A DNA stretch of 64,000 bases from positions 11,884 to 75,883 of the forward strand of contig CANPXH010000008.1 of assembly GCA_947585865.1 (NCBI GenBank), written 5' to 3'. This DNA is from an uncultured Clostridia bacterium (GTDB lineage: Bacteria > Bacillota > Clostridia > Lachnospirales > CAG-274). Positions 4,394-35,234 of this stretch are shown here, in pieces; the first letter of the stretch is position 1, and each line of letters starts with the position of its first letter. The position numbers and the translations under genes were made by a program. The notes beneath the pieces were generated by a model, which made no database searches, was not told the DNA's origin, and was given only the letters and a program-made list of their open reading frames with translations.

Positions 4394-5917
4394 ATGAAAT
4401 ATTTAATAGGGATAGATATAGGTACCTCTGCCACAAAGACCGTATTATTTGATGAAAAGTGCAATGTTATGGCTTCCGCTTCCAAGGAATATCCTCTTTT
4501 CCAGCCGCATAACGGATGGGCGGAGCAGGAGCCCGAGGATTGGTATGATGCGGTCATAACAACGCTTGGCCAAGTTGTTTCCAAAAGCGGCGTGAGCAGC
4601 GAGGACATTGCGGGAATAGGCCTTTCGGGGCAGATGCACGGCCTTGTTATGCTGGATGAGGATAATGCTGTTATACGGCCGGCTATAATATGGTGCGATC
4701 AAAGAACAGCTAAGGAATGCGAAGAGATAACCAAGCGTGTGGGAGCGGAAAGGCTCATTGAAATATCCGCCAATCCTGCGCTTACGGGATTTACCGCCTC
4801 CAAGATATTGTGGGTACGCAGCAACGAGCCGGAAAATTACAAAAGATGCAGGCATATCCTTTTGCCCAAGGATTACATACGCTTTAAGCTCACGGGAGAA
4901 TATGCAACGGATGTTTCGGATGCAAGCGGTATGCAGCTTTTGGATGTGCCGAAGCGCTGCTGGTCAGATGAGATACTGAATAAGCTGGATATAGACAGAT
5001 CTATGCTGGGAAGGGTATACGAATCCCCCGAAGTGACGGGATATATCACAAAGGAGACAGCCAAGCTTACAGGCTTGTCCTGCAAGACCGCCGTTGTAGC
5101 GGGAGCGGGAGACAACGCTGCCGCCGCTATAGGCACCGGGATCGTAAAAGACGGAAAGGCATTTACGACAATAGGCACATCCGGCGTAGTATATGCCCAC
5201 ACTTCAACGCCTTCCATAGACAAGAAGGGCAGGGTGCATACATTCTGCTGTGCTGTTCCCGGCTGCTGGCATATTATGGGCGTAACGCAGGCGGCAGGCC
5301 TTTCGCTTAAATGGTTCAAGGACAACTTCTGTCAAGACTATGCTGCAGAGGCAAAAGAGCAAAGCCGTGATGTATATGACATAATAAACGAGAAAATAGA
5401 AAATGTGCCCTTGGGCAGCAACAGGCTTATATATTTGCCTTATCTTATGGGAGAAAGAACGCCCCACCTTGACTCGGAATGCAGAGGTGTGTTCTTCGGC
5501 CTTTCGGGGATACATACCAAGCCCGATCTTTTAAGAGCCGTTATGGAGGGCGTATCGTTTTCTCTCACCGACTGTAAAGAAATACTTGAGGAAACAGGTG
5601 CAAATATAAATGAAATGATGGTATGCGGAGGCGGCGGCAAAAGCCGTGTATGGCGCAGTATGCTGGCGGATATGTATAATTGCGGCGTAAAGACCATAGT
5701 ATCTGAGGAAGGCCCCGCATTGGGCGTCGCCATATTGGCGGGAGTAGGCACAGGTGTATTTGAAAGCGTTGAGGCTGCCTGTGAGAAATTCATACAGGAA
5801 AAAGAAGCGTCTGTTCCCAATATTGAAAATCATAAAAAGTATCGTAATATCCATAAGCTTTATCAAAAGCTCTATACTTCCCTTAAGGATGATTTTAAAA
5901 CACTGGGTTCGCTTTGA
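4394..5917 (+). CDS. xylB: Xylulokinase (FGGY carbohydrate kinase)
   Basis: 507-aa ORF with the IGIDIGTSATK N-terminus, GQMHGLV and GGGAKS-like (GGGGKS) motifs. GGAGGA RBS. Confidence 0.85.
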   Translation: MKYLIGIDIGTSATKTVLFDEKCNVMASASKEYPLFQPHNGWAEQEPEDWYDAVITTLGQVVSKSGVSSEDIAGIGLSGQMHGLVMLDEDNAVIRPAIIWCDQRTAKECEEITKRVGAERLIEISANPALTGFTASKILWVRSNEPENYKRCRHILLPKDYIRFKLTGEYATDVSDASGMQLLDVPKRCWSDEILNKLDIDRSMLGRVYESPEVTGYITKETAKLTGLSCKTAVVAGAGDNAAAAIGTGIVKDGKAFTTIGTSGVVYAHTSTPSIDKKGRVHTFCCAVPGCWHIMGVTQAAGLSLKWFKDNFCQDYAAEAKEQSRDVYDIINEKIENVPLGSNRLIYLPYLMGERTPHLDSECRGVFFGLSGIHTKPDLLRAVMEGVSFSLTDCKEILEETGANINEMMVCGGGGKSRVWRSMLADMYNCGVKTIVSEEGPALGVAILAGVGTGVFESVEAACEKFIQEKEASVPNIENHKKYRNIHKLYQKLYTSLKDDFKTLGSL

Positions 5918-6078: not shown

Positions 6079-9000
6079 TTATTTATTTGCTGCCTTTTTT
6101 TGGATAGGCATTTCATAAGAGCTGTCCAGCATCTTCTGGAGAAGAACGGCAACATCTGTGGTATCGAGTTTACCGTCTGCACTTACATCCAGCTTATCAA
6201 GAACAGAGCTTACATTGCTCGGTGTGATAACGCCGCCGTTTACCTGCTTGATAATACCCTTTAAGGCATATCCGAGAAGATCGACAACATCGTTGATCTC
6301 AACCTGACCGTTTGCATCTGCATCGCCGTACATATCAGGCTTTACAGGAGGAAGAGTAGTCTCTTCTGAAGACGGTTCGGTATTGGTAGTTGCTTGTGAG
6401 CTTGTATCCTTGGTAGTCTCTTCTGAAGACGGTTCGGTATTGGTAGTTCCTTCTGAAGACGGTTCTTCAACAGTCTTGCCTGAAGTATAGCCTAAGTAAT
6501 AGATACAAGTCTTTGAGCCGTTTGCAAAGATGTAATAGCTCTTGCCCTGCTTTACATTTATTCTTACTATATCATAAGAGGTTGAGCCGTTTGTCTGATC
6601 CTTAGAGTAGACAACAGTACCTGCTTCGTCTGTAATATATGTAGCCTTGCCTGTATTTGTCTTTATAGCAGCTGTAAGAGCACCGTCTGCTTTAGGAGTG
6701 AACTTCAGATAACCGCCTGATACGGGGATACCCGTAGGATCGCCGTTGCCTGTGTTCTCAGACATAGGTCCTTGGCCTCTTGAATCGGTAGGATTATTCT
6801 TAGGCTGTACCCAATCCCATAATTCATAAGTCTTATCGCCCTCTGTAAATTCAGCGGCTGCGTCTTCTTCTGAATTAGCAAGGAATGCCTCGCCTAATTC
6901 TATCATACCGTAGTCATCCTTAACAAGGTCAGTATCAACAGCCCACATATACTCGTCGTTAAGTCCTTCCGTTACAGGAGGAGCGGGAGGAGTATCCTCT
7001 ACGATACCGATATATGGATTGGAAACAGTTATGTCTCTGTCCGTATCCTTTGAAGCTGTAATAGAAGCAAAGCCGCCTACCTCTTTTGTGGTAATAGGCA
7101 CAGCGCTTGTATATGTATTGCCGTCTACAGTAAGAGTAACGCTTGCATTGTCAAGGTCGATAATAAATTCATACTCATATGTCTTATTTGCGACCAATGC
7201 ATCCGTTGATACGGAATATCCGTTATCCTTATCGCCGTTTACTCTAAGAGTAAGGTTCTTGTTGCCATCGCTCGCAAGAGCCGCTATCTCGGGATATGTT
7301 CCGTCGGCGCCTGCAGGACCTGTAACACTTACAAGAGCCCATGAACCACTCTTCTTAGTAGGAGTAGCGGTACCTCTTACAACTACCTTGCCGCTCTTTA
7401 TTGTTTCCTTAAGAGGAATGTTGAGCTTAGCAGAATTACTGCCGTCTGTATCATGAAGCTTATATGAATCTGTAGCCGCATCATATGTTACTGATATTGA
7501 ACCGCCATTGCTGTTGTCCTGAGCATCGCCCTTGTCAACGGGAGTTGACTGAACGGGAGCTGAAGTAGTGGCTTCTGTAGATTCATCGGGAGCAGCAGTT
7601 GTTCCCTCACCGGGAGTAGGAGGAACAAATGAACCGCCGCCGCCTGCTATAAACTTCATGTAATAAAGGTATGTGCTTGAAGAACCCTTCTTTACCTCAA
7701 CAGGACCTGCTTTGATAGGAATGGTATTGGCACCGTCCTTTATATCATATCTCTGACCGTTTACAAGTACATATCTGCCGCTTCCGCCATACATGATCAT
7801 TATGAGATCGCCGTCTGAAGGAGCTGTAAATGTAATGCTTGTAGAACTTTCCATCTTTACAGCCTTGGTAAGAGATTCGCCATCGGGACTTGTCTGTACG
7901 TGGCTGTCTGCGGAATTCCAGTTGTTAGCTGATACATCATAGAAATCAGCTGTATTTTCGCCTGTAGTATAATTCCATACGTATTCGTCTCCGCCTTCCT
8001 TTACTGTAATGACAGCCTTAGCGGGAACTCCTGTAGATGCAATTATCTGAGCAGGCTCAATGTTTGCTACCTGCCAGCCGGGAACGCTTGCGGTCACTGC
8101 AAGAGATGTTCCTACATCTACTTTGCCTGTGAATGTATTATTTCCGGCATAGTCAAGTTTCTTTGTGCCTACATATACCATTGCGGCTGTAGCATCAAGA
8201 GTAGCTGTAGAGTCTTTATCTGCCTCTATGGTAACGGTAACATCACCCTGAGCCTTGTCAAGATGTATCTCTGTAGCTGCATTTGTAGTCTTGATAGCTA
8301 TTTTCTGAGGAGCTGCAGGTTCAATATAATTGCCTACGCCTGTAATTGTAACAGTTCTCTCTCCTACCGGATACTGAACGGCTGACTTATAAATGCCTTC
8401 GCCCTGAGCTGAAAGTTTGTCGCCGTTGTCAAGTGTAACTGTTGCGCCGTTTATAGGAGCATTGTCGCTGCCTCCTGTAAGCTTTACTACAGCATAACCG
8501 TCTGTATCGGGCTTAAGTGTTGCAGTTTCTTCAAATACTCCGCCGTCTGTTTCAATAGGCTTTGTTGATATAACAACATTCTCGTAGCCTTCCTTTGAAA
8601 CAGTTACGCCATATTCTGAATAAAGTGAACAAGTTGCTTCATATACTCCGCTGCCCATATTTGAGAAGCTGAGGCCGCTTGCTGTAACGGAAGCGTCTGT
8701 TACAGGCGCACCCTTGTCATCCTTTACCGTTATCCTAACGGTACCTGACTCAACCTGTGGGAACTCATGCAAAGTACCTGCATAAGTCTGTACCTCTGTA
8801 GGAACATCCTCAGGTTTGTCTAACTTATCAACTATTGTGTTGCCTGATGCATCACAGTAGAAATACTTAGGATTGGTATCCCAGTTAGCTATTGAAACAC
8901 CGTCCGGGAAATAAAGTCCGTTATCAGGCAGACATTTTTCGCCTCTTGAATTAGCAACTGAAAGAGTACCTACCGTTTTTCCTAATGTACAGTCTGCCTG

Positions 9001-10674: not shown

Positions 10675-13020
10675 ATGAAATTAAGACGGTTAATTGCGGC
10701 GATATCAGTCGTAACAATGCTTTTCGGCTCAGTCAGCGCACAGGCATACGGTACTCCCGTCACAAGGGGAGAGGCTGCGGATATGCTTGCTTCTGCGGCA
10801 GACGACTATACTCCCGGCATAAGTGCTGCGGATATACTTAAGGGCTATGATGACGGCGAGCTCCACGAGGATAGGGGCCTTACTCGTGCAGAGGCTCTTG
10901 TAATGCTTAAGAGAGCCTTCGGCGAATTCCCCGCTCCCACAGGACACAATCTGAGAACAGGCTATCCTGCCGAAAACTTTACGGATATTCCCGACTGGGC
11001 GGATGAGGAGATAGCCGATGTGCTTGCTTCGGGCATAATAGCAGGCACCTCCGAGAACACACTTTCTCCCGATGAGCCCATTACAAGGGAACAGCTTGAA
11101 GCACTTATAAAGCGTACATATGCTTATATGGGCAAAAGCTTAAAGGACGACTACTGGGCAACCGTCAATAAAAATGACCTTGATACTCTTGAAATAGATG
11201 AAGGCAAAACATATGTAGGCGGCGCATTCAATGAAACTATAAATACCGTAGAGGAACAGATGACAGCTATAAGAGACGAGCTTCTTGCAGGAAATTATGA
11301 AAAGGGTTCAAAGGAGCAGAAAATTGCCGACCTCTACAGAAGCGTAATGAATAAGGAATACAGGGCAAAAACGGGAATGGCGCCTATAATGCCTTACATG
11401 GAGCTTATAGACAAGGCGCAGAGCGTTGAGGATATTATCAAAATAAACAACACTCTTACAGAAGAAATTGCATTGACGCCCCTTATGACCTTCGGCGTAT
11501 ATGTAGACGATAAGGACAATTCAAAGAATATAATGCGCTTTAGTGTACTTTCAGGATTTCTTGGCGTAAGCTCTTTGTATGACGACGAAAATATAATTGA
11601 TGAATACAGAAAGCTTATAAATACATATTTAAAGGCTGTAGGCGAGACCGATGAGGAGGCTGACAGGAACGCCGACCTTGTAATAGACTATGAATCAAGG
11701 ATAATGAAGTATTTCCCCGATATTCAGGAATTTAATGATGTTGACAAGACGTACAATCTGTATAAATTAGATGATATAAAGGAAATGTTCCCGGGAGTTG
11801 ATATAGATTCCGTATTTGCAGCCTCAGGCTATGACGAAAGCTGGAAAACCACCGATATGCTTCTTGTCTGCCCGGATTTTACAAAAGCTGTAGCAGCAGA
11901 GCTTACCGATGACAATATAGATACCCTTAAGGCATACATTAAATTTGTAGTTTTATTCCATACAGGGGGTAATCTTTCAGATGAGCTTTCAGACGCCGAA
12001 TATACCTTTTATGAGGAAACGGGCATGGGCGCAAGAGAAACCGAAGAGCAAAATGCTCTTTCTACTATAGAGGGTACATTTTATGACTACCTGGGCGAAA
12101 TATATGCCAATAAATATTTCTCAGCCGAAAAGAAGCAGAATGTGGAAAATATGGTAAAGGATATAATAAACGTATATAAGAACCGTATTGAAAACGCAGA
12201 CTGGATGAGCGGCAAGACAAAGGAAAAGGCTTTGCTTAAGCTCAGCGAAATGAAGATACTTATAGGCTATCCCGAGGTATACAACGACCCTTATGAATAT
12301 GCCGAAATAAACAGCGACAGCCTTTATGAAAATAGTATAAGTCTGTCATTGTCAGTCCGTAAAAAAGACATTGAGGAGCAGTTCATACCTATTGATGAAA
12401 ACTATATGGGTGATTTGGCGGTTTATGATGTAAACGCTTGTTATAATCCTTCAATGAACGAAATAATATTCCCTGCCGCAATACTTCAGGCGCCGTTCTA
12501 TGACTACGACGCATCCTATGAGACCAATCTGGGCGGCGCAGGTTATGTTATAGCCCATGAGATATCTCATGCCTTTGACAATTCCGGAGCGAAATTTGAC
12601 GAAAAGGGAAATTATTCAAACTGGTGGACAGACGAGGACAGGGCAGCCTTTGACGCTCTCTGCGATAAGATGGCGGAATACTATGACGGTCGGGAAATAG
12701 CTCCCGGCATACTGTCAGACGGCGAGCAGACCTTAAGCGAAAATATTGCCGATAACGGCGCTGTAAGCTGCATACTGGAAATAGCATCTCATCTTGAGAA
12801 CCCCGACTACGACGCTCTTTTCAGAGCTGCCGCATACTGCTATGCAGAAAGCAGCGACCGCAGCACTTTGGAATTTGACACGGTAAGCGATGTTCACAGC
12901 AACGGAAAGCTCCGTATAAACAGAGTATTTGAAAACAATCAGATATTCTACGATACCTATGACATAAAGGAAGGCGACGGTATGTACGTTGCTCCCGAGG
13001 ACCGTGTACAGATATGGTAA
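10675..13020 (+). CDS. Secreted M13-family zinc metallopeptidase (PepO/neprilysin-like) with N-terminal SLH-type anchoring repeats, copy 1
   Basis: Signal peptide present. SLH-like segments (LTRAEALVMLKRAF; FTDIPDWADEEIADVLASGIIAG...ITREQL). HEISHAFD zinc motif and ENIADNGA motif. Confidence 0.85.
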   Translation: MKLRRLIAAISVVTMLFGSVSAQAYGTPVTRGEAADMLASAADDYTPGISAADILKGYDDGELHEDRGLTRAEALVMLKRAFGEFPAPTGHNLRTGYPAENFTDIPDWADEEIADVLASGIIAGTSENTLSPDEPITREQLEALIKRTYAYMGKSLKDDYWATVNKNDLDTLEIDEGKTYVGGAFNETINTVEEQMTAIRDELLAGNYEKGSKEQKIADLYRSVMNKEYRAKTGMAPIMPYMELIDKAQSVEDIIKINNTLTEEIALTPLMTFGVYVDDKDNSKNIMRFSVLSGFLGVSSLYDDENIIDEYRKLINTYLKAVGETDEEADRNADLVIDYESRIMKYFPDIQEFNDVDKTYNLYKLDDIKEMFPGVDIDSVFAASGYDESWKTTDMLLVCPDFTKAVAAELTDDNIDTLKAYIKFVVLFHTGGNLSDELSDAEYTFYEETGMGARETEEQNALSTIEGTFYDYLGEIYANKYFSAEKKQNVENMVKDIINVYKNRIENADWMSGKTKEKALLKLSEMKILIGYPEVYNDPYEYAEINSDSLYENSISLSLSVRKKDIEEQFIPIDENYMGDLAVYDVNACYNPSMNEIIFPAAILQAPFYDYDASYETNLGGAGYVIAHEISHAFDNSGAKFDEKGNYSNWWTDEDRAAFDALCDKMAEYYDGREIAPGILSDGEQTLSENIADNGAVSCILEIASHLENPDYDALFRAAAYCYAESSDRSTLEFDTVSDVHSNGKLRINRVFENNQIFYDTYDIKEGDGMYVAPEDRVQIW

Positions 13021-13054: not shown

Positions 13055-15400
13055 ATGAAACTAAGACAAATTATTGCGGCGGTATCCGTCACAACAATGC
13101 TTTTCGGCTCTGTAAGCGCACAGGCGGCAGGCACTCCCGTCACAAGGGGCGAGGCCGCAGATATGCTTGCTGCCGCAGCCGATGACTACACTCCCGGCGT
13201 AAGCAAGGAGGACATACTCAAGGGATATGAAGACGGCGAGCTTCATGAAGAACAAGGAGTTACCCGTGCCGAGGCACTTGTAATGCTTAAGAGAGCCTTC
13301 GGAGAATTTCCCGCTCCCACGGGAGACAATCTGAGAACAGGCTATCCTGCAGAAAACTTTACGGATATTCCCGAATGGGCGGATGAAGAGATAGCCGATG
13401 TGCTTGCTTCGGGCATAATAGCAGGCACCTCCGAGAATACTCTTTCTCCCGATGACCCCATTACGAAGGAACAGCTTGAAACACTTATAACACGTACATA
13501 TGCTTATATGGGCAAAAATTTAAAGGATGACTACTGGGCGACCGTTAATAAGAACACCCTTGATACCCTTGAAATAAAAGAGGGCAGAACAACTGCCGGC
13601 GGCGCATTTGACACCATTAATGATACCGTAGAGGGTCAGATAAAGGCTATAAGAGATGAGCTTCTTGCAGGAAGCTACGAAAAGGGATCAAAGGAGCAGA
13701 AAATTGCCGATTTCTACAGAAGCGTAGTCAACAAGGAATACAGGGCTAAAACGGGGATGGCGCCTATAATGCCTTATATGGAGCTTATAGACAAGGCGCA
13801 GAGCGTTAAGGATATCATTGATATAAACAACACCTTTATAGAAGAAATGGGAATAATGCCCCTTATGTACTACGGTACAGATATAGACGTTAAGGACAAT
13901 TCAAAAAAGGTATTTTCTTTCGATGTAAGTATAGGACAGCTTGGAGCAAAAGCTCTGTATGATGATCAAAACACAATGGATGCATACAAAAAGCTTATAA
14001 ATACCTACTTCAAGGCTATAGGCGAGAGCGATGAGGAGGCTGCAAAGGACACCGAGCTTGCAGCAGGCTTTGAGTCAAGGACAATGAAGTCTTTCCCCGA
14101 TGTTCAGGATATGACTGACATTGACAAGCTTTTTAATCCTTATAGACCGGATGATATAAAGGAAATGTTCCCGGGAGTCGATCTGGATTCCGTATATACG
14201 GCTTCGGGCTATGATGAAAGCTGGAAAACCACCGATATAATTATTTACTACCCTGATTATATAAAAGCTATAGCAGCCGAGTATACCGATGACAATATAG
14301 ATACCCTTAAGGCATATACTAAGTTTGTAATTCTCAGCAAATTAGGAAGCACCCTTTCAGACGAGCTTTTAGATGCCGAATATACATTTATGGAAACAGT
14401 TGGCATGGGCGCAAGAAAGAACGAAGAACAGAATGCTCTTTCCTCTGTAGAAGGTATATTTAATGATTACCTGAGCGAAATATATGCCGACAAATATTTC
14501 TCTGCCGAAAAAAAGCAAAATGTTGAAAATATGGTAAATGATATAATAGACGTTTACAAGACGCGTATTGAAAACGTGGACTGGATGAGCGATAAGACAA
14601 AGGAAAAGGCTTTGCTTAAGCTCGATAATATGAATATACTTATAGGCTATCCCGAGGTATACAAGGACCCCTATGCATATGCTGAAATAAACAGCGACAG
14701 TTATTATGAAAATTATGTGAGCCTGTCATTGTCAAAGCATAAAAAGGATATTGAGGATCAGTTCACGCCTATGGACAAAAACGATATAAGCAAAATGCCT
14801 GTTTATATGATAAACGCAGGTTATCAGCGTACCATGAACGAAATAATATTCCCTGCCGCAATACTTCAGGCGCCCTTCTATGACTATGACGCATCCTACG
14901 AGGCTAATCTGGGCGGCATAGGCTATGTTATAGCTCATGAAATATCACACGCCTTTGATAATTCCGGAGCAGACTTTGACGAAAAGGGAAATATGTCAAA
15001 CTGGTGGACAGACGAAGACAGAGCAGCCTTTGACGCTCTATGTGATAAGATGGCGGCATACTATGACGGTCTGGAAATAGCTCCCGGCATATTGTCAAAC
15101 GGCAGACAGACCTTAGGCGAAAATATTGCAGACAACGGCGCTGTAAGCTGTATACTGGAAATAGCATCTCATCTTGAAAATCCCGATTATGACGCTCTTT
15201 TCAAATCTGCAGCCCACTGCTGGGCAGAAAGCAACAGCCGCAGCTATCTGGCATACATTACCGCAAGCGATACTCACAGCTGCTCAAAGCTCCGTGTAAA
15301 CAAAGTATTTCAGAATAATCAGATATTCTACGATACCTACGGCATAAAGGAAGGCGACGGTATGTACGTTGCTCCCGAGGACAGAGTGCATATATGGTAA
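13055..15400 (+). CDS. Secreted M13-family zinc metallopeptidase with SLH-type repeats, copy 2 (tandem paralog)
   Basis: Same length (781 aa) and same motifs as copy 1. Own AGGAGG RBS. Only 34 nt separate it from copy 1. Confidence 0.85.
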   Translation: MKLRQIIAAVSVTTMLFGSVSAQAAGTPVTRGEAADMLAAAADDYTPGVSKEDILKGYEDGELHEEQGVTRAEALVMLKRAFGEFPAPTGDNLRTGYPAENFTDIPEWADEEIADVLASGIIAGTSENTLSPDDPITKEQLETLITRTYAYMGKNLKDDYWATVNKNTLDTLEIKEGRTTAGGAFDTINDTVEGQIKAIRDELLAGSYEKGSKEQKIADFYRSVVNKEYRAKTGMAPIMPYMELIDKAQSVKDIIDINNTFIEEMGIMPLMYYGTDIDVKDNSKKVFSFDVSIGQLGAKALYDDQNTMDAYKKLINTYFKAIGESDEEAAKDTELAAGFESRTMKSFPDVQDMTDIDKLFNPYRPDDIKEMFPGVDLDSVYTASGYDESWKTTDIIIYYPDYIKAIAAEYTDDNIDTLKAYTKFVILSKLGSTLSDELLDAEYTFMETVGMGARKNEEQNALSSVEGIFNDYLSEIYADKYFSAEKKQNVENMVNDIIDVYKTRIENVDWMSDKTKEKALLKLDNMNILIGYPEVYKDPYAYAEINSDSYYENYVSLSLSKHKKDIEDQFTPMDKNDISKMPVYMINAGYQRTMNEIIFPAAILQAPFYDYDASYEANLGGIGYVIAHEISHAFDNSGADFDEKGNMSNWWTDEDRAAFDALCDKMAAYYDGLEIAPGILSNGRQTLGENIADNGAVSCILEIASHLENPDYDALFKSAAHCWAESNSRSYLAYITASDTHSCSKLRVNKVFQNNQIFYDTYGIKEGDGMYVAPEDRVHIW

Positions 15401-15551: not shown

Positions 15552-16349
15552 TTAAGGCTGTTTTGTTCTGAGTATCACAACTTTGCCGGAATAGTCTACA
15601 TCTCTGTCTCCGAGCACGTCTGCGAGCTCTCTTATCCCAACGTAATTGTTGCCTCTTATATTGATAGCTTTTACCCTGCTTATATTTCCATCGGCATCGA
15701 TATCTATATATTCTGTTTTGTTGTCAAGTATCGGCAGCTTTGTGCTGCTGTTGTATCCTACGGTAAAGCCGGCGTTTTCAAGACCTCTCAGATCTATGAA
15801 ATTTTTGCTGTTTTTTACTATCTTGTCTATTTTTACGGTTTTGCCGTTTATATTTATATAGCCTGTTTCGACCACTTCGTCTTCCTCCTTTTTCTCTATA
15901 TAAACATCCTTCCAGGTTTTTTTGAAATTGTCCGGGGTTTTATAAAGCTTTTTAAGATAGGCGGGCGTGCTTCCCCAATATTTCAACTGGAAGTGGGGCA
16001 TATCCACAGGCGTTGTCCAGTCGCCTCCCCATTCAAGCCCCAGCTCTTTACCTGTTTGGCCTACTTTGTTGAACCAGCCGTCACTGTTGTTATAGGCTCC
16101 CTTTCCGTCATTTCTTATTATATCGAAGGCTACGCCCCATTGGTGCATGGAACTGTAGTCCGTACCCTTGGCATATGTAACTATATTGCCTTTTTCTGTT
16201 CTGCCCAAAGCATAGAGCTTATTCTGCTCGGCAACTGTTCTGCAGCATTCTCCGAGCTTTATGAAAAGCCCTTTTTTGCGGCAGTTTTCAATAAGCCTTG
16301 CCGCCAGTATCTGCAGTTCGGGATGACATTTTGAAATATCTCTTCCCAT
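15552..16349 (-). CDS. M15-family peptidoglycan peptidase (CwlK/VanY-like, endolysin-like) with a C-terminal putative wall-binding domain
   Basis: Starts at MGRDISKCHP with a GGGGAGGTG RBS. RTVAEQNKLY, GVAFDI and GLEWGGDW...DMPHFQ motifs of M15C peptidases. The track ORF start at 16430 is over-extended. Confidence 0.8.
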   Translation of the reverse strand: MGRDISKCHPELQILAARLIENCRKKGLFIKLGECCRTVAEQNKLYALGRTEKGNIVTYAKGTDYSSMHQWGVAFDIIRNDGKGAYNNSDGWFNKVGQTGKELGLEWGGDWTTPVDMPHFQLKYWGSTPAYLKKLYKTPDNFKKTWKDVYIEKKEEDEVVETGYININGKTVKIDKIVKNSKNFIDLRGLENAGFTVGYNSSTKLPILDNKTEYIDIDADGNISRVKAINIRGNNYVGIRELADVLGDRDVDYSGKVVILRTKQP

Positions 16350-16429
16350 AAAGATCACCTCCCCTGTACAATATGACAGAAGAGGCTTATCTGTTACAAC
16401 CACAAAATGTATCATAAAAAATAAACTCA

Positions 16430-16459
16430 TTTTCCCTTGACCGGGTCACGGGAAAATGC
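16430..16459. repeat. Left hairpin direct repeat of mini-island A
   Basis: TTTTCCCTTGACCGGGTCACGGGAAAATGC is itself a hairpin. It matches 17282-17310 at 26 positions, with 3 mismatches and 1 indel. Confidence 0.65.
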
Positions 16460-16472
16460 ATGATTTTAAGTA

Positions 16473-16502
16473 TTGACAATTATTACTTATATGTGGTACC
16501 AT
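16473..16502 (+). promoter_or_regulatory. Candidate sigma-A promoter of island A (TTGACA, extended -10 TGgTACCAT)
   Basis: TTGACA at 16473-16478 with an 18-nt spacer. A TG lies 1 nt before TACCAT at 16497-16502. Confidence 0.4.
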
Positions 16503-16704
16503 TGTATTGTCTAAATTGTTTAATGGAGATAATATATCTATATTAAATATGTCACGTTTGCTGTAAGTAAAATTTTTGTTGTTAGGCAATTATGATTTTG
16601 TCTGTTTTATAGGTGAGTTTTATATACACATTAAATAAAACAACAACAAATATTGAAAATACGATTGGTTTAAAGTAATCAGATATTATAAATTCCGAAT
16701 ACTT

Positions 16705-16815
16705 TAACCGACGGGTAAGTCTCCCGCTTCTATAAGCGGCGAGTACTTACTTTTGTATTCCGCAGGGGTACAAGCTCCTGCTGAATACAAAGGCTTTGGT
16801 AAAAGCCGTCGGTTA
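16705..16815 (+). ncRNA. Unclassified structured RNA element (three-way-junction fold) in the long leader of the small membrane-protein gene
   Basis: A 10-bp closing helix TAACCGACGG/CCGTCGGTTA encloses two long hairpins (16715-16750 and 16752-16791). The element is GC-rich inside an AT-rich leader. Confidence 0.45.
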
Positions 16816-16871
16816 TGAGTACGTAGCGTAAGCGTAGTACGAATATCCTTGACTATTTAGGAGGGAATAAA

Positions 16872-17138
16872 ATGCCGGTAAATATACGTACATACAAAAA
16901 TTCAATTCTTGCATCGGTCATTGCACTGCTTGCGTCAATCATCGACGCTCTGTTAAAGCTTTTGGGATTAGCGTGCATTGTCGGGCTTTGCTCTGAGAAA
17001 GGTTTTATCGTCGGCTTGCTTTTAGGCTTTATCTGTCTTGTAATATGTATTCTGATAGGCACATTTATCAAGTGGATAATATTTAAGCTGTGCGATCGGA
17101 TCGCCATGCGCAAACTTATCAAGCAAAACAAAGAGTAA
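16872..17138 (+). CDS. Small hydrophobic membrane protein (88 aa, 2-3 TM segments, basic C-terminal tail)
   Basis: Strong AGGAGGG RBS 6 nt upstream of the ATG. Hydrophobic core with a charged tail (DRIAMRKLIKQNKE). Followed by a terminator. Confidence 0.6.
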   Translation: MPVNIRTYKNSILASVIALLASIIDALLKLLGLACIVGLCSEKGFIVGLLLGFICLVICILIGTFIKWIIFKLCDRIAMRKLIKQNKE

Positions 17139-17167
17139 GGAAAGTGTAAAATAAATCAAAAAAATTT

Positions 17168-17196
17168 GGCTCTTTGTCAATAGTTGGGAGTAACAC
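17168..17196 (+). repeat. 29-nt element shared with island B (inverted copy at 52655-52682)
   Basis: GGCTCTTTGTCAATAGTTGGGAGTAACAC equals the reverse complement of 52655-52682 except for a one-base indel. Confidence 0.7.
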
Positions 17197-17213
17197 CAAA
17201 TTTAGAGCGATCG

Positions 17214-17250
17214 ACCACCTGTTATTCAGTATAGCAGGTGGTTTTATTTT
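17214..17250 (+). terminator. Intrinsic terminator of the island A transcript
   Basis: Stem ACCACCTG/CAGGTGGT followed by TTTTATTTT. Confidence 0.7.
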
Positions 17251-17280
17251 GTTGCTGCTGTCTTCCGTAAAGCCGTTAGG

Positions 17281-17310
17281 ATTTTCCGGTGACCGGGTAA
17301 CGGAAAATGC
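17281..17310. repeat. Right hairpin direct repeat of mini-island A, abutting the TetR stop codon
   Basis: ATTTTCCGGTGACCGGGTAACGGAAAATGC is a hairpin that matches 16430-16459. Confidence 0.65.
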
Positions 17311-17883
17311 TCAGAAGCTTATGCCCAGAAGTTTAAGCGGTTTTTTTGAAAAAAACTCCAGTATAAGGTCTATGGCGCTGTCAGGGTCCGCATTATCGTT
17401 TTCTACCCACCATTTCAACATAATAATAAAGAGCGTGCGGTATACTTCAAGCAGCAGCTTTTCGTCCATCATACTGTTTGCCATGCCGTGTGTCTGCGAA
17501 AGTATGACCGGAGTTATCTTGTCATAGAGCTTATGTACAAATACCTTATTGTTTTCATCGTTTATAAGCACAGAAAAGACCTCCTTTTCTTTTCTTATAT
17601 TATTGAGAAGATTTATAACGGGCTTTCTCTGTTCATGTCCATTTAATTTATGAAGGGTCTCCATAGTGGACTCGGGATCAAGCACATCTATAAGCTCATT
17701 GCATATCTCGTCATAGAGAGCCTGCTTGGTCTCGTAGTGCATATAAAATGTTTTTCTGTTTATAAGGGCTCTGTCGGCTATGTCCGTAATAGTGACGTTG
17801 TTGTAGCCTTTTTCTTTTATAAGTTGAAGAAAAGCATCTTTTATAGCTTTCCTGCTTTTGACTATTCTCAGATCCGTTTTCAT
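17311..17883 (-). CDS. TetR/AcrR-family transcriptional regulator
   Basis: N-terminal TetR HTH (IKDAFLQLIKEKGYNNVTITDIADRALINRKTFYMHY). Divergent from the efflux operon. Confidence 0.9.
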   Translation of the reverse strand: MKTDLRIVKSRKAIKDAFLQLIKEKGYNNVTITDIADRALINRKTFYMHYETKQALYDEICNELIDVLDPESTMETLHKLNGHEQRKPVINLLNNIRKEKEVFSVLINDENNKVFVHKLYDKITPVILSQTHGMANSMMDEKLLLEVYRTLFIIMLKWWVENDNADPDSAIDLILEFFSKKPLKLLGISF

Positions 17884-17974: not shown

Positions 17975-17986
17975 TTGCTTAAGCAA
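17975..17986. promoter_or_regulatory. Candidate TetR operator palindrome in the divergent promoter region
   Basis: Perfect 12-bp palindrome TTGCTTAAGCAA between the TetR gene and the efflux operon. Confidence 0.35.
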
Positions 17987-35126: not shown

Positions 35127-35234
35127 AGCTTCTCCTTTGATATATCCATAAATAATTCTATAAATAACAGTATATCATAAAACAGACGCTTTTAAAAGTA
35201 CTTTTGAAAAATGTAAATTATTTTATATAAAACT

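Follow-up and report, generated by a model that had tools for sequence, protein, structure and literature searches.

Duplication of a terminator palindrome around a compositionally foreign, predicted 821-bp transcription unit in an uncultured Clostridia bacterium

Why does what looks like one transcription terminator stand twice in a single intergenic region, once on each side of a small gene? The question is raised by a stretch of 64,000 nucleotides of contig CANPXH010000008.1 from an uncultured Clostridia bacterium (the whole stretch is hereafter called the window), in which two ~30-nt copies of a palindrome enclose a small unit, island A, between the gene of an endolysin-like M15 peptidase and a tetR gene. 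A first-pass annotation, made from the sequence of the window, had suggested that an insertion of ~850 bp duplicated the tetR terminator hairpin, and had named an empty site in a relative as the way to check it. We found such a site, with one palindrome between tetR and the M15 gene. It supports the proposal and sets the length of the insert at 821 bp.

The empty site is located in L016, a related Logan metagenome contig reached via a search with the M15 peptidase. The M15 orthologue of L016 has 82% identity to that of the window, the TetR proteins share 94% of their amino acids, and the gene order and orientation are the same (efflux genes, tetR, M15 peptidase). The tetR-M15 spacing in L016 is 110 nt and contains a single perfect palindrome (13-1-13) and, after it, a U-tract (TGA-TCG-TTTTCCCGTGACC-T-GGTCACGGGAAAA-TGGGTTTGTTTTTTATGAT), with a predicted fold of -22 kcal/mol. 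In blastn alignments, positions 1-4837 of L016 matched window 22120-17281 with 86.5% identity, and positions 4810-5674 matched window 16456-15592 with 83.5% identity. The single 28-nt stretch 4810-4837 of L016 was aligned twice, to window 16429-16456 and to window 17281-17308, and the flanks were collinear. The use of one palindrome for both alignments is the signature of an 821-bp insertion accompanied by a duplication of 30/31 nt, and at the level of sequence comparison we regard the insertion with palindrome duplication as demonstrated. Three near-identical metagenome contigs also carry the 88-aa protein encoded by the insert, in the same context; as all of them represent the same locus, they are uninformative on the insertion. 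No intragenomic donor was seen among the contigs found to carry this gene.

The two window copies agree with their first description in most respects. Aligned by hand as 30-mers (16430-16459 and 17281-17310), they agree in 26 positions and differ by 3 mismatches and 1 indel, which confirms the earlier count, and repeat detection in the window recovered 16429-16455 and 17281-17307 with 85% identity and no gap. The duplicated length is 30/31 nt (palindrome sequence TTTTCCCGTGACCNGGTCACGGGAAAA), and the copies enclose 821 bp (16460-17280). The repeat extends beyond the stem by 3 nt at its start and by 1 nt at its end. The right copy indeed abuts the tetR stop codon (copy end 17310, stop 17311-17313), and the left copy is followed, in the minus-strand reading, by the T-rich GAGTTTATTTTTT. 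The earlier statement that both copies are hairpins was correct for the left copy only. Its RNA fold was calculated as -17.7 kcal/mol (z -3.1) and it is accompanied by a U-rich tract (16416-16425), so that it is predicted to be a still functional terminator, whereas the right copy folds with -8.2 kcal/mol (z -0.2) and is no longer a good hairpin. Such uneven decay is expected from the loss of the U-tract on one side. The bases that precede the stem are GCA in both window copies and TCG in L016, and the central base is C in both copies and T in L016; copying of the site of the window lineage itself would produce such shared private bases. The degenerate repeat pattern had 0.00 expected occurrences in shuffles of the window. 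Outside the two copies, the hairpin pattern was found only in same-species contigs and in L016; the remainder of the window and 180 further loci lacked it, so a dispersed genome-wide repeat, the alternative raised in the first-pass annotation, finds no support.

A pair of palindromes might also be read as paired operators of a dimeric regulator, for example of the neighbouring TetR. In size, the 27-nt palindromes resemble TetR/QacR-type operators, and the left copy lies between two divergent promoters. We give this explanation hardly any credence: the empty site dates the second copy to the insertion itself, the right copy is decayed, and a separate perfect palindrome, TTGCTTAAGCAA (17975-17986), is located where an operator is expected, in the divergent tetR-efflux promoter region. 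The latter is likely the TetR operator, and we list it as a candidate from its sequence and position.

The composition of the insert sets it apart from its surroundings. Its GC content is 35.7%, compared to 43.2% for the window, and falls into the lowest 2% of 821-nt windows, which marks the composition of the cargo as foreign. Taken together, the low GC content, the only copy of a structured repeat in 196 kb and a scrap of an ISL3 element (both described below) point to a foreign cargo. The ends of the insert, ATGATTTTAAG... on the left and ...GCCGTTAG(G) on the right, are not inverted repeats (IRs); the right end next to the palindrome reads ...GCCGTTAGG. The list of open reading frames (ORFs) for the 821 bp contains ORF88, the gene of the 88-aa protein, and no other, and no transposase, integrase or recombinase is present, which bears out the first-pass statement that a mobility gene is missing. 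The cargo features listed in Table 1 form one complete promoter-to-terminator transcription unit, which is presumably expressed. The cargo had no match among annotated phages, and no Rfam family reached its gathering score in the island. Weak matches to PyrG_leader and isrC were dismissed as chance; that to PyrG_leader spans the ISL3 IR and the terminator.

Table 1. Features of island A and of its flanks, with positions in the window
Feature	Position	Strand	Description
M15 peptidase, endolysin-like	15552..16352	-	no signal peptide; Pfam Peptidase_M15_4, PHROG endolysin families; flank
Left (M15-side) palindrome copy	16429..16459	-	GCATTTTCCCGTGACCCGGTCAAGGGAAAAT on minus strand; aligns to the single L016 palindrome
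Sigma-70-type promoter	16473..16502	+	TTGACA, 18-nt spacer, TACCAT, upstream TG; 10/12 matches
AT-rich part of 5' leader	16510..16702	+	~23% GC; no homologue found
R1-family repeat copy	16703..16859	+	P1-closed junction, three hairpins, plus 3' hairpin with two tandem-GA internal loops
ORF88, two-helix membrane protein of 88 aa	16872..17138	+	Shine-Dalgarno AGGAGGG at 16859-16865
ISL3-derived module	17168..17251	+	solo terminal IR GGCTCTTTGTCAATAGTTGGGAGTAACAC, then hairpin and U-tract; cargo terminator
Insert tail GTTGCTGCTGTCTTCCGTAAAGCCGTTAG	17252..17280	+	29 nt, no recognisable feature; L009 homology ends at 17251
Right (tetR-side) palindrome copy	17281..17310	-	no U-tract, decayed stem; aligns to L016 palindrome
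TetR-family regulator	17311..17883	-	Pfam TetR_N, TetR_C_8; flank

The promoter, the long structured leader, the ORF with its strong Shine-Dalgarno sequence and the terminator of the cargo had all been recognised in the first-pass annotation, and each is present. The promoter reads AAGTATTGACAA. Its TATTGACAA context recurs in plain promoters at 35234 and 43826; across the window, TATTGACAA was found 7 times compared to 0.9 expected (3248, 16471, 17174, 35234, 39932, 43826, 52668). Among these copies are strong promoters as well as two ISL3 IRs, which indicates that the ISL3 end holds a near-consensus outward-facing -35 box. A reading of the cargo promoter as a degenerate ISL3 IR, that is, of the cargo as the core of a decayed composite transposon, was rejected, as the same context is found in the two ordinary promoters. 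The leader of ~360 nt folds far beyond its shuffles (z -6.9), and the terminator consists of a hairpin with a U-tract at 17213-17243.

Upstream of this terminator hairpin lies a 29-nt element that the first-pass annotation had reported as common to island A and a second island in the window, island B, and had taken for a feature of their shared design. A pattern search in the window found it only at 17168-17198 (+) and 52655-52682 (-), with a third, weaker IR-like copy at 52038-52061. The element is thus present in both islands; it is an ISL3 remnant and not a cassette-specific signal. The 22-mer GGCTCTTTGTCAATAGTTGGGG occurs in the viral contigs L022 and L030 just outside the 3' ends of DDE_Tnp_ISL3 (PF01610) genes, which identifies the 29-nt element as an ISL3 terminal IR; it begins with GGCTCTT, as such an IR should. 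In the window, this ISL3 end is solo, with the transposase and the partner IR missing. A complete ISL3-type IR-hairpin consensus, taken from L028, gave no match in plasmids or phages. The IR-plus-hairpin scraps at window 17168, 52038 and 52682 and in the genome locus L009 resemble ISL3 insertion sequences (ISs) or end fragments similar to miniature inverted-repeat transposable elements. They differ from ISL3 elements in being solo ends, without partner or transposase, and the insert's own ends are not ISL3 IRs. Moreover, ISL3 elements make 8-bp duplications, compared to 30 bp here.

The comparison with L016 can also be read in the opposite direction, with the filled state ancestral and L016 produced by a deletion, through recombination between two pre-existing hairpin repeats. 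Direct repeats of 30 nt can mediate precise deletion, and no outgroup fixes the polarity, the relatives L004 and L009 being rearranged at this place. These were obtained by searching GTDB genomes for tetR relatives. In L004, tetR is 86% identical and the homology to the window ends exactly at the tetR stop codon, after which the N-terminus of an IS transposase with a weak DDE_Tnp_1_assoc match was found (6574-6826). In L009, tetR is 74% identical and is followed by a gene for a CAP12/Pycsar-type TIR with NUDIX (CAP12-TIR/NUDIX, 6577-8947) and then by pyrG; the neighbours of more distant tetR relatives are unrelated. The spot after the tetR stop codon varies, being occupied by island A in the window, by the IS-transposase fragment in L004, by CAP12-TIR/NUDIX in L009 and by nothing in L016. 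The L009 locus further contains, downstream of pyrG and ~2.3 kb from tetR, an IR-plus-terminator-hairpin module 82% identical to that of the cargo, which counts in favour of the deletion. The homology is limited to 87 nt, however, and is explained by a shared ISL3-end module. Ancestral synteny with the pyrG region of L009 was rejected on the same grounds (only the IR and the hairpin are homologous, the module is absent from L016, and the two are copies of one ISL3-end module). We consider the deletion improbable. The L016 palindrome is perfect (-22 kcal/mol), whereas recombination between the two diverged window copies would have left an imperfect one, and the cargo is compositionally foreign and made of mobile repeats.

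The largest of these repeats makes up the second part of the leader. The GC-rich element there had been described as a three-way junction. A structured element is present, and it is a four-way junction (P1 plus three hairpins) followed by a 3' hairpin. It ends ...CGAATATCCTTGAC, directly before the Shine-Dalgarno sequence. In Rfam, the window element scored 23.9 bits against Clostridiales-1 (RF01699), whose gathering score is 48, and it is therefore not a member of that family. A pattern derived from the shared hairpin found 22 viral and more than 120 metagenome stretches. Some of these are true Clostridiales-1 RNAs (110-130 bits), and most belong to another family of ~160 nt, here called R1, which has no entry in Rfam 15. 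R1 repeats occur as type I (TTTAACCGAATCAAG...GGTTATGAGCAAGTAGCGAAGCGGATTGCGAATATCCGCTTGAC) and type II (TTGAACGCAGATAAGC...GCGTTCATGAG...GTCCGCTTTAC), and also as internally deleted short forms and tandem arrays (L151, L139, L170). The family was seen in human-gut metagenomes and viral contigs, at loci that include L046, L054, L058, L062, L064, L074, L151, L170 and many others. At L140 (minus strand, at about match 4953), a ~70-nt short R1 form (GAACGCAG...GCTTTAC) lies within an otherwise typical Clostridiales-1 RNA (cf. L053); the nested position of this copy suggests that the R1 repeat is mobile.

The fold of R1 is supported by covariation. The family alignment (A2) contains 21 members, including window 16703-16860, and has 39 consensus pairs, 27 of which show compensatory changes. 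Of the alignment cells at these pairs, 95.4% are paired, compared to 82.5% in shuffles (none of 500 reached the observed value) and 30-47% with slid partners. The G-U pairs are strand-specific, meaning that the modelled strand is the folding one. The R1 covariance model matched window 16703-16859 with 101 bits (E 1.6e-26, model positions 1-167), a score inflated by the inclusion of the window sequence in the model. Independent support for membership comes from blastn, with 72% identity over 139 nt to L055, and from the compensatory pairs. The model found a single copy in 196 kb comprising the window and the loci of eleven relatives. On true Clostridiales-1 RNAs it gave 17-31 bits, mainly from the hairpin module, and apparent full-length alignments scored no higher.

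We also inspected the genes around R1. The gene next to the repeat was co-oriented with it in 58 cases, 20 of which start within 60 nt, and convergent in 28. Among 576 ORFs neighbouring 104 R1 loci, there was no recurrent transposase or TnpB, and the neighbours were ordinary and diverse. As the neighbours are diverse and no transposase or TnpB recurs among them, we interpret the window element as a copy of a dispersed structured repeat and not as a gene-specific leader. A gene-specific riboswitch was rejected for the same diversity of downstream genes and for the co-orientation of only 58 against 28. An origin of the repeat from IS200/IS605-type elements or TnpB guides was likewise rejected, as there is no recurrent transposase or TnpB and no target-site duplication could be defined. 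Located in a 5' untranslated region (UTR), the R1 repeat may affect mRNA stability or translation.

R1 resembles two kinds of known sequences. With Clostridiales-1, it has in common the hairpin with two tandem-GA internal loops (AUGAG.A.G.AGC ... GCG.A.U.CGAAU) and the occurrence in gut Clostridia and phage contigs. It differs in the remaining architecture and in the low score of the window element, and we regard R1 as a separate, larger family. The likeness to the REP/BIME, BOX, RUP, ERIC and Correia repeats lies in the multiple intergenic copies, the full and internally deleted forms, the tandem arrays, the frequent position right after terminators and before genes, and the lack of a linked transposase. 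Unlike those repeats, R1 folds into multiple covarying helices, a far more elaborate structure in which the G-U pairs are strand-specific, and no terminal IRs or target-site duplication could be defined for it. The GC-rich junction of island A is now assigned to a ~160-nt repeat, widespread and strongly covarying, that is found in gut Firmicutes as well as phage contigs and has a module in common with the orphan Clostridiales-1 RNA.

The single protein of the unit has few relatives. A k-mer protein search found nothing beyond ORF88 itself, and an exhaustive HMMER search gave 7 homologues of 69-92 aa with 29-58% identity over the full length. The family has a conserved N-terminus, MIPVxIRTYKxS, and the invariant residues S11, D25, K29, E42, G48 and G63. 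The AlphaFold2 model of ORF88 contains two helices (residues 12-43 and 45-87; pLDDT 78), and no Pfam, PHROG or NCBIfam family fits. The homologues are stand-alone promoter-to-terminator units with short plain leaders, placed among unrelated housekeeping genes. Sequence conservation indicates that ORF88 is a real conserved gene of a rare family of ~90-aa membrane proteins, and its product is probably an accessory small two-helix membrane protein. This new family, the ISL3 identity of the 29-nt element and the large R1 family, which Rfam lacks, are by-products of the analysis, solid and modestly interesting.

Could the unit be a functional lysis or toxin module, with ORF88 as the holin of the M15 endolysin or as a type I toxin under leader or antisense control? 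Two transmembrane helices with a basic C-terminal tail, a signal-less endolysin-like peptidase next to the unit and a long structured 5' UTR would fit such a role. The M15 gene stands beside tetR without ORF88 in L016, however, and its orthologues in L012 and L013 have other gene contexts; the homologues of ORF88 have no endolysin close by (L181-L184), and their leaders are short and plain. No PHROG or Pfam holin matches ORF88. Type I toxins are shorter than 60 aa, with a single transmembrane segment, and are paired with an overlapping antisense RNA that has its own promoter. With 88 aa and two helices, ORF88 is larger than typical, no convincing antisense promoter was found (the minus-strand sites are weak, 9/12), and the leader owes its structured part to a dispersed repeat that also stands beside unrelated genes. 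By these sequence criteria, the ORF88 unit qualifies neither as a type I toxin-antitoxin system nor as a holin-endolysin pair. We judge a lysis or toxin module to be very unlikely, and the adjacency of ORF88 to the endolysin-like gene to be incidental.

How, then, did the unit enter a terminator and double it? With moderate confidence, we propose that island A is a genuine, fairly old and horizontally acquired insertion in a palindromic terminator, made by breakage at the feet of the hairpin and fill-in. The DNA would have been broken at both feet of the extruded hairpin by staggered nicks ~30 nt apart or, alternatively, by resolution of a cruciform followed by unfolding and fill-in. A foreign fragment would then have been joined between the broken ends, and fill-in would have copied the resident palindrome with its 3-4 flanking bases (30/31 nt), leaving one copy per side. 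The enzyme would have acted in trans, as a protein not encoded by the insert. The cargo would have been assembled from mobile scraps: a consensus-like promoter, the R1-bearing 5' UTR of ~360 nt, ORF88, and the ISL3 IR with its hairpin terminator. After the insertion, the M15-side copy would have kept the U-tract and stayed a good terminator, while the tetR-side copy, deprived of it, would have decayed. In consequence, tetR transcripts may read through antisense to ORF88.

The direct repeats can also be explained as attL and attR of a site-specific integrative element, with the palindrome as the attB core. The element could have been a prophage, an integrative and conjugative or mobilizable element (ICE/IME), or a small cassette mobilised by a tyrosine recombinase of the host, comparable to cis-mobilizable elements (CIMEs), integrative mobile elements exploiting Xer (IMEXs) or pdif modules; the 821 bp would be either the whole trans-mobilised cassette or a remnant after internal, possibly IS-mediated, deletions. 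Direct repeats of 10-60 bp around integrase-less gene islets are the usual footprint of att-flanked elements, and repeats of 30/31 nt do flank island A. A 13-1-13 (or 11-6-11) palindrome has a simple recombinase-site geometry, the solo ISL3 IR of the cargo is a deletion-type scar, and the R1-family repeat occurs on viral contigs. The insert contains no recombinase, however: neither an integrase among its ORFs nor an attP relative in IMG/VR was found, where the only matches to the palindrome were four unrelated ones of high GC content. In addition, the lineage-private GCA and central C are present in both copies, which a foreign attP need not share, the U-tract is not restored on the tetR side, and a symmetric spacer would give no directionality. 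We hold the att explanation to be less probable, and regard it as the main and a serious rival of the proposed breakage. Breakage at the hairpin feet is preferred over an att core because the repeat coincides exactly with the structure, because both copies contain the private variants, and because no attP-like copy or recombinase was found.

We must also note what speaks against the proposed insertion by hairpin-foot breakage. It rests on one event. A search of the window for further insertions with a duplicated hairpin gave no convincing case, and a common mechanism cannot be demonstrated for island B. We know of no enzyme in Clostridia that cuts hairpins with a stagger of ~30 nt. Recombination at a palindromic core of the att or lox type, by a recombinase since lost or acting in trans, would leave an identical footprint. 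The polarity, insertion as opposed to deletion in L016, was argued from composition and content and not from an outgroup.

Among known systems, the ruler-type integrases (CRISPR Cas1-Cas2, casposon) offer a likeness to the proposed event, since they copy a ~30-nt palindromic unit whole to both sides and the positions of their cuts are set by the structure or the ends of the palindrome. Island A differs from them in having no known cas1 or casposase, in an insert of 821 bp with a gene instead of a spacer, in being a single event and not an array, and in its target, a transcription terminator; the target-site duplications of casposons are 14-15 bp long. With CIMEs, IMEXs and the pdif modules of Acinetobacter plasmids, island A shares the small size, the short and partly palindromic repeats, and the lack of an own mobility gene in modules moved in trans. 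Its sites have no apparent similarity to the dif or pdif consensus, however, and are copies of the local terminator instead of a family site; neither a second module or an array nor a helper element was found. The palindrome appears unlike the Bacillus-type dif, which may not be the dif of this clade, and an 11-6-11 geometry appears possible by eye. An integron cassette is likewise a single-gene unit with an imperfect hairpin-forming palindrome (attC). In contrast, neither copy in island A has R''/R' boxes (RYYYAAC/GTTRRRY), there is no intI, the ORF has its own promoter where a cassette ORF is promoterless, and the hairpins are the resident terminator. As for target-site duplication in general, island A has an empty site, and no transposase or terminal IRs at the insert ends.

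At present, island A is one well-documented insertion and not a demonstrated system; a structure-delimited duplication of ~30 nt without a mobility gene is unusual. It is conceivable, and in our opinion unlikely, that terminator palindromes in these Clostridia are entry points of an insertion route not yet described, at which a hairpin- or cruciform-specific enzyme cuts both feet of the stem and whole promoter-to-terminator units are captured, with target-site duplications of ~30 nt set by the structure and made without a transposase of the element. If so, duplication of terminator hairpins would offer bacteria an easy route to insulated accessory genes between existing ones, without disruption of the neighbours, and the duplicated hairpin would be a footprint for systematic pan-genome searches.

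Island B (window 51602-52682) had been said to parallel the design of island A, and the parallel holds for the layout only. Its direct repeats of 45 nt consist of a terminator-like hairpin running into a partly degenerate ISL3 IR, and the left copy contributes, in its IR-like portion, the -35 box of the DUF3800-I promoter. Within the island, the DUF3800 gene is interrupted at 52038-52165 by an IR-like sequence and a terminator hairpin (52038-52083). For island B, no empty site was found, as the synteny of L178, L179 and L180 is lost immediately past the dac gene. Six other loci with a DUF3800-I motif and a DUF3800 gene were confirmed by Rfam, and five of them, from IMG/VR (L185-L189), were tested for repeats; none of the five cassettes had flanking direct repeats, and the idea that DUF3800-I cassettes generally duplicate a hairpin was rejected. 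A skipping-rope RNA (RF02924, 40 bits), which has a promoter-like sequence and a terminator of its own, is located 4.5 kb away from the DUF3800-I RNA, at 56262-56358 (-). The T-box leader of ileS (55908-56124) lies on one side of it, and a gene that ends at ~56462 on the other. Both the skipping-rope and the DUF3800-I motifs were linked to DUF3800-type genes by Weinberg et al. 2017 (PMC5737381).

Some observations concern the flanks of island A. A hairpin, GCCTCTTCTGTCATATTGTACAGGGGAGGT (16357-16386, minus strand), pairs the Shine-Dalgarno sequence of the M15 gene and is conserved in L016 (~4878-4910); it may control translation of the endolysin-like gene. The same-species contig L001 departs from the window inside the M15 gene (L001 1-50, window ~16268), which reflects either a rearrangement at the level of strains or a chimeric assembly at 2x coverage. 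Farther from the island, two tandem paralogous genes for M13 peptidases with SLH domains are located at 10675-13020 and 13055-15400; 300 nt at the 5' end of each, upstream region included, show 81% identity, and the period is 2380 nt.

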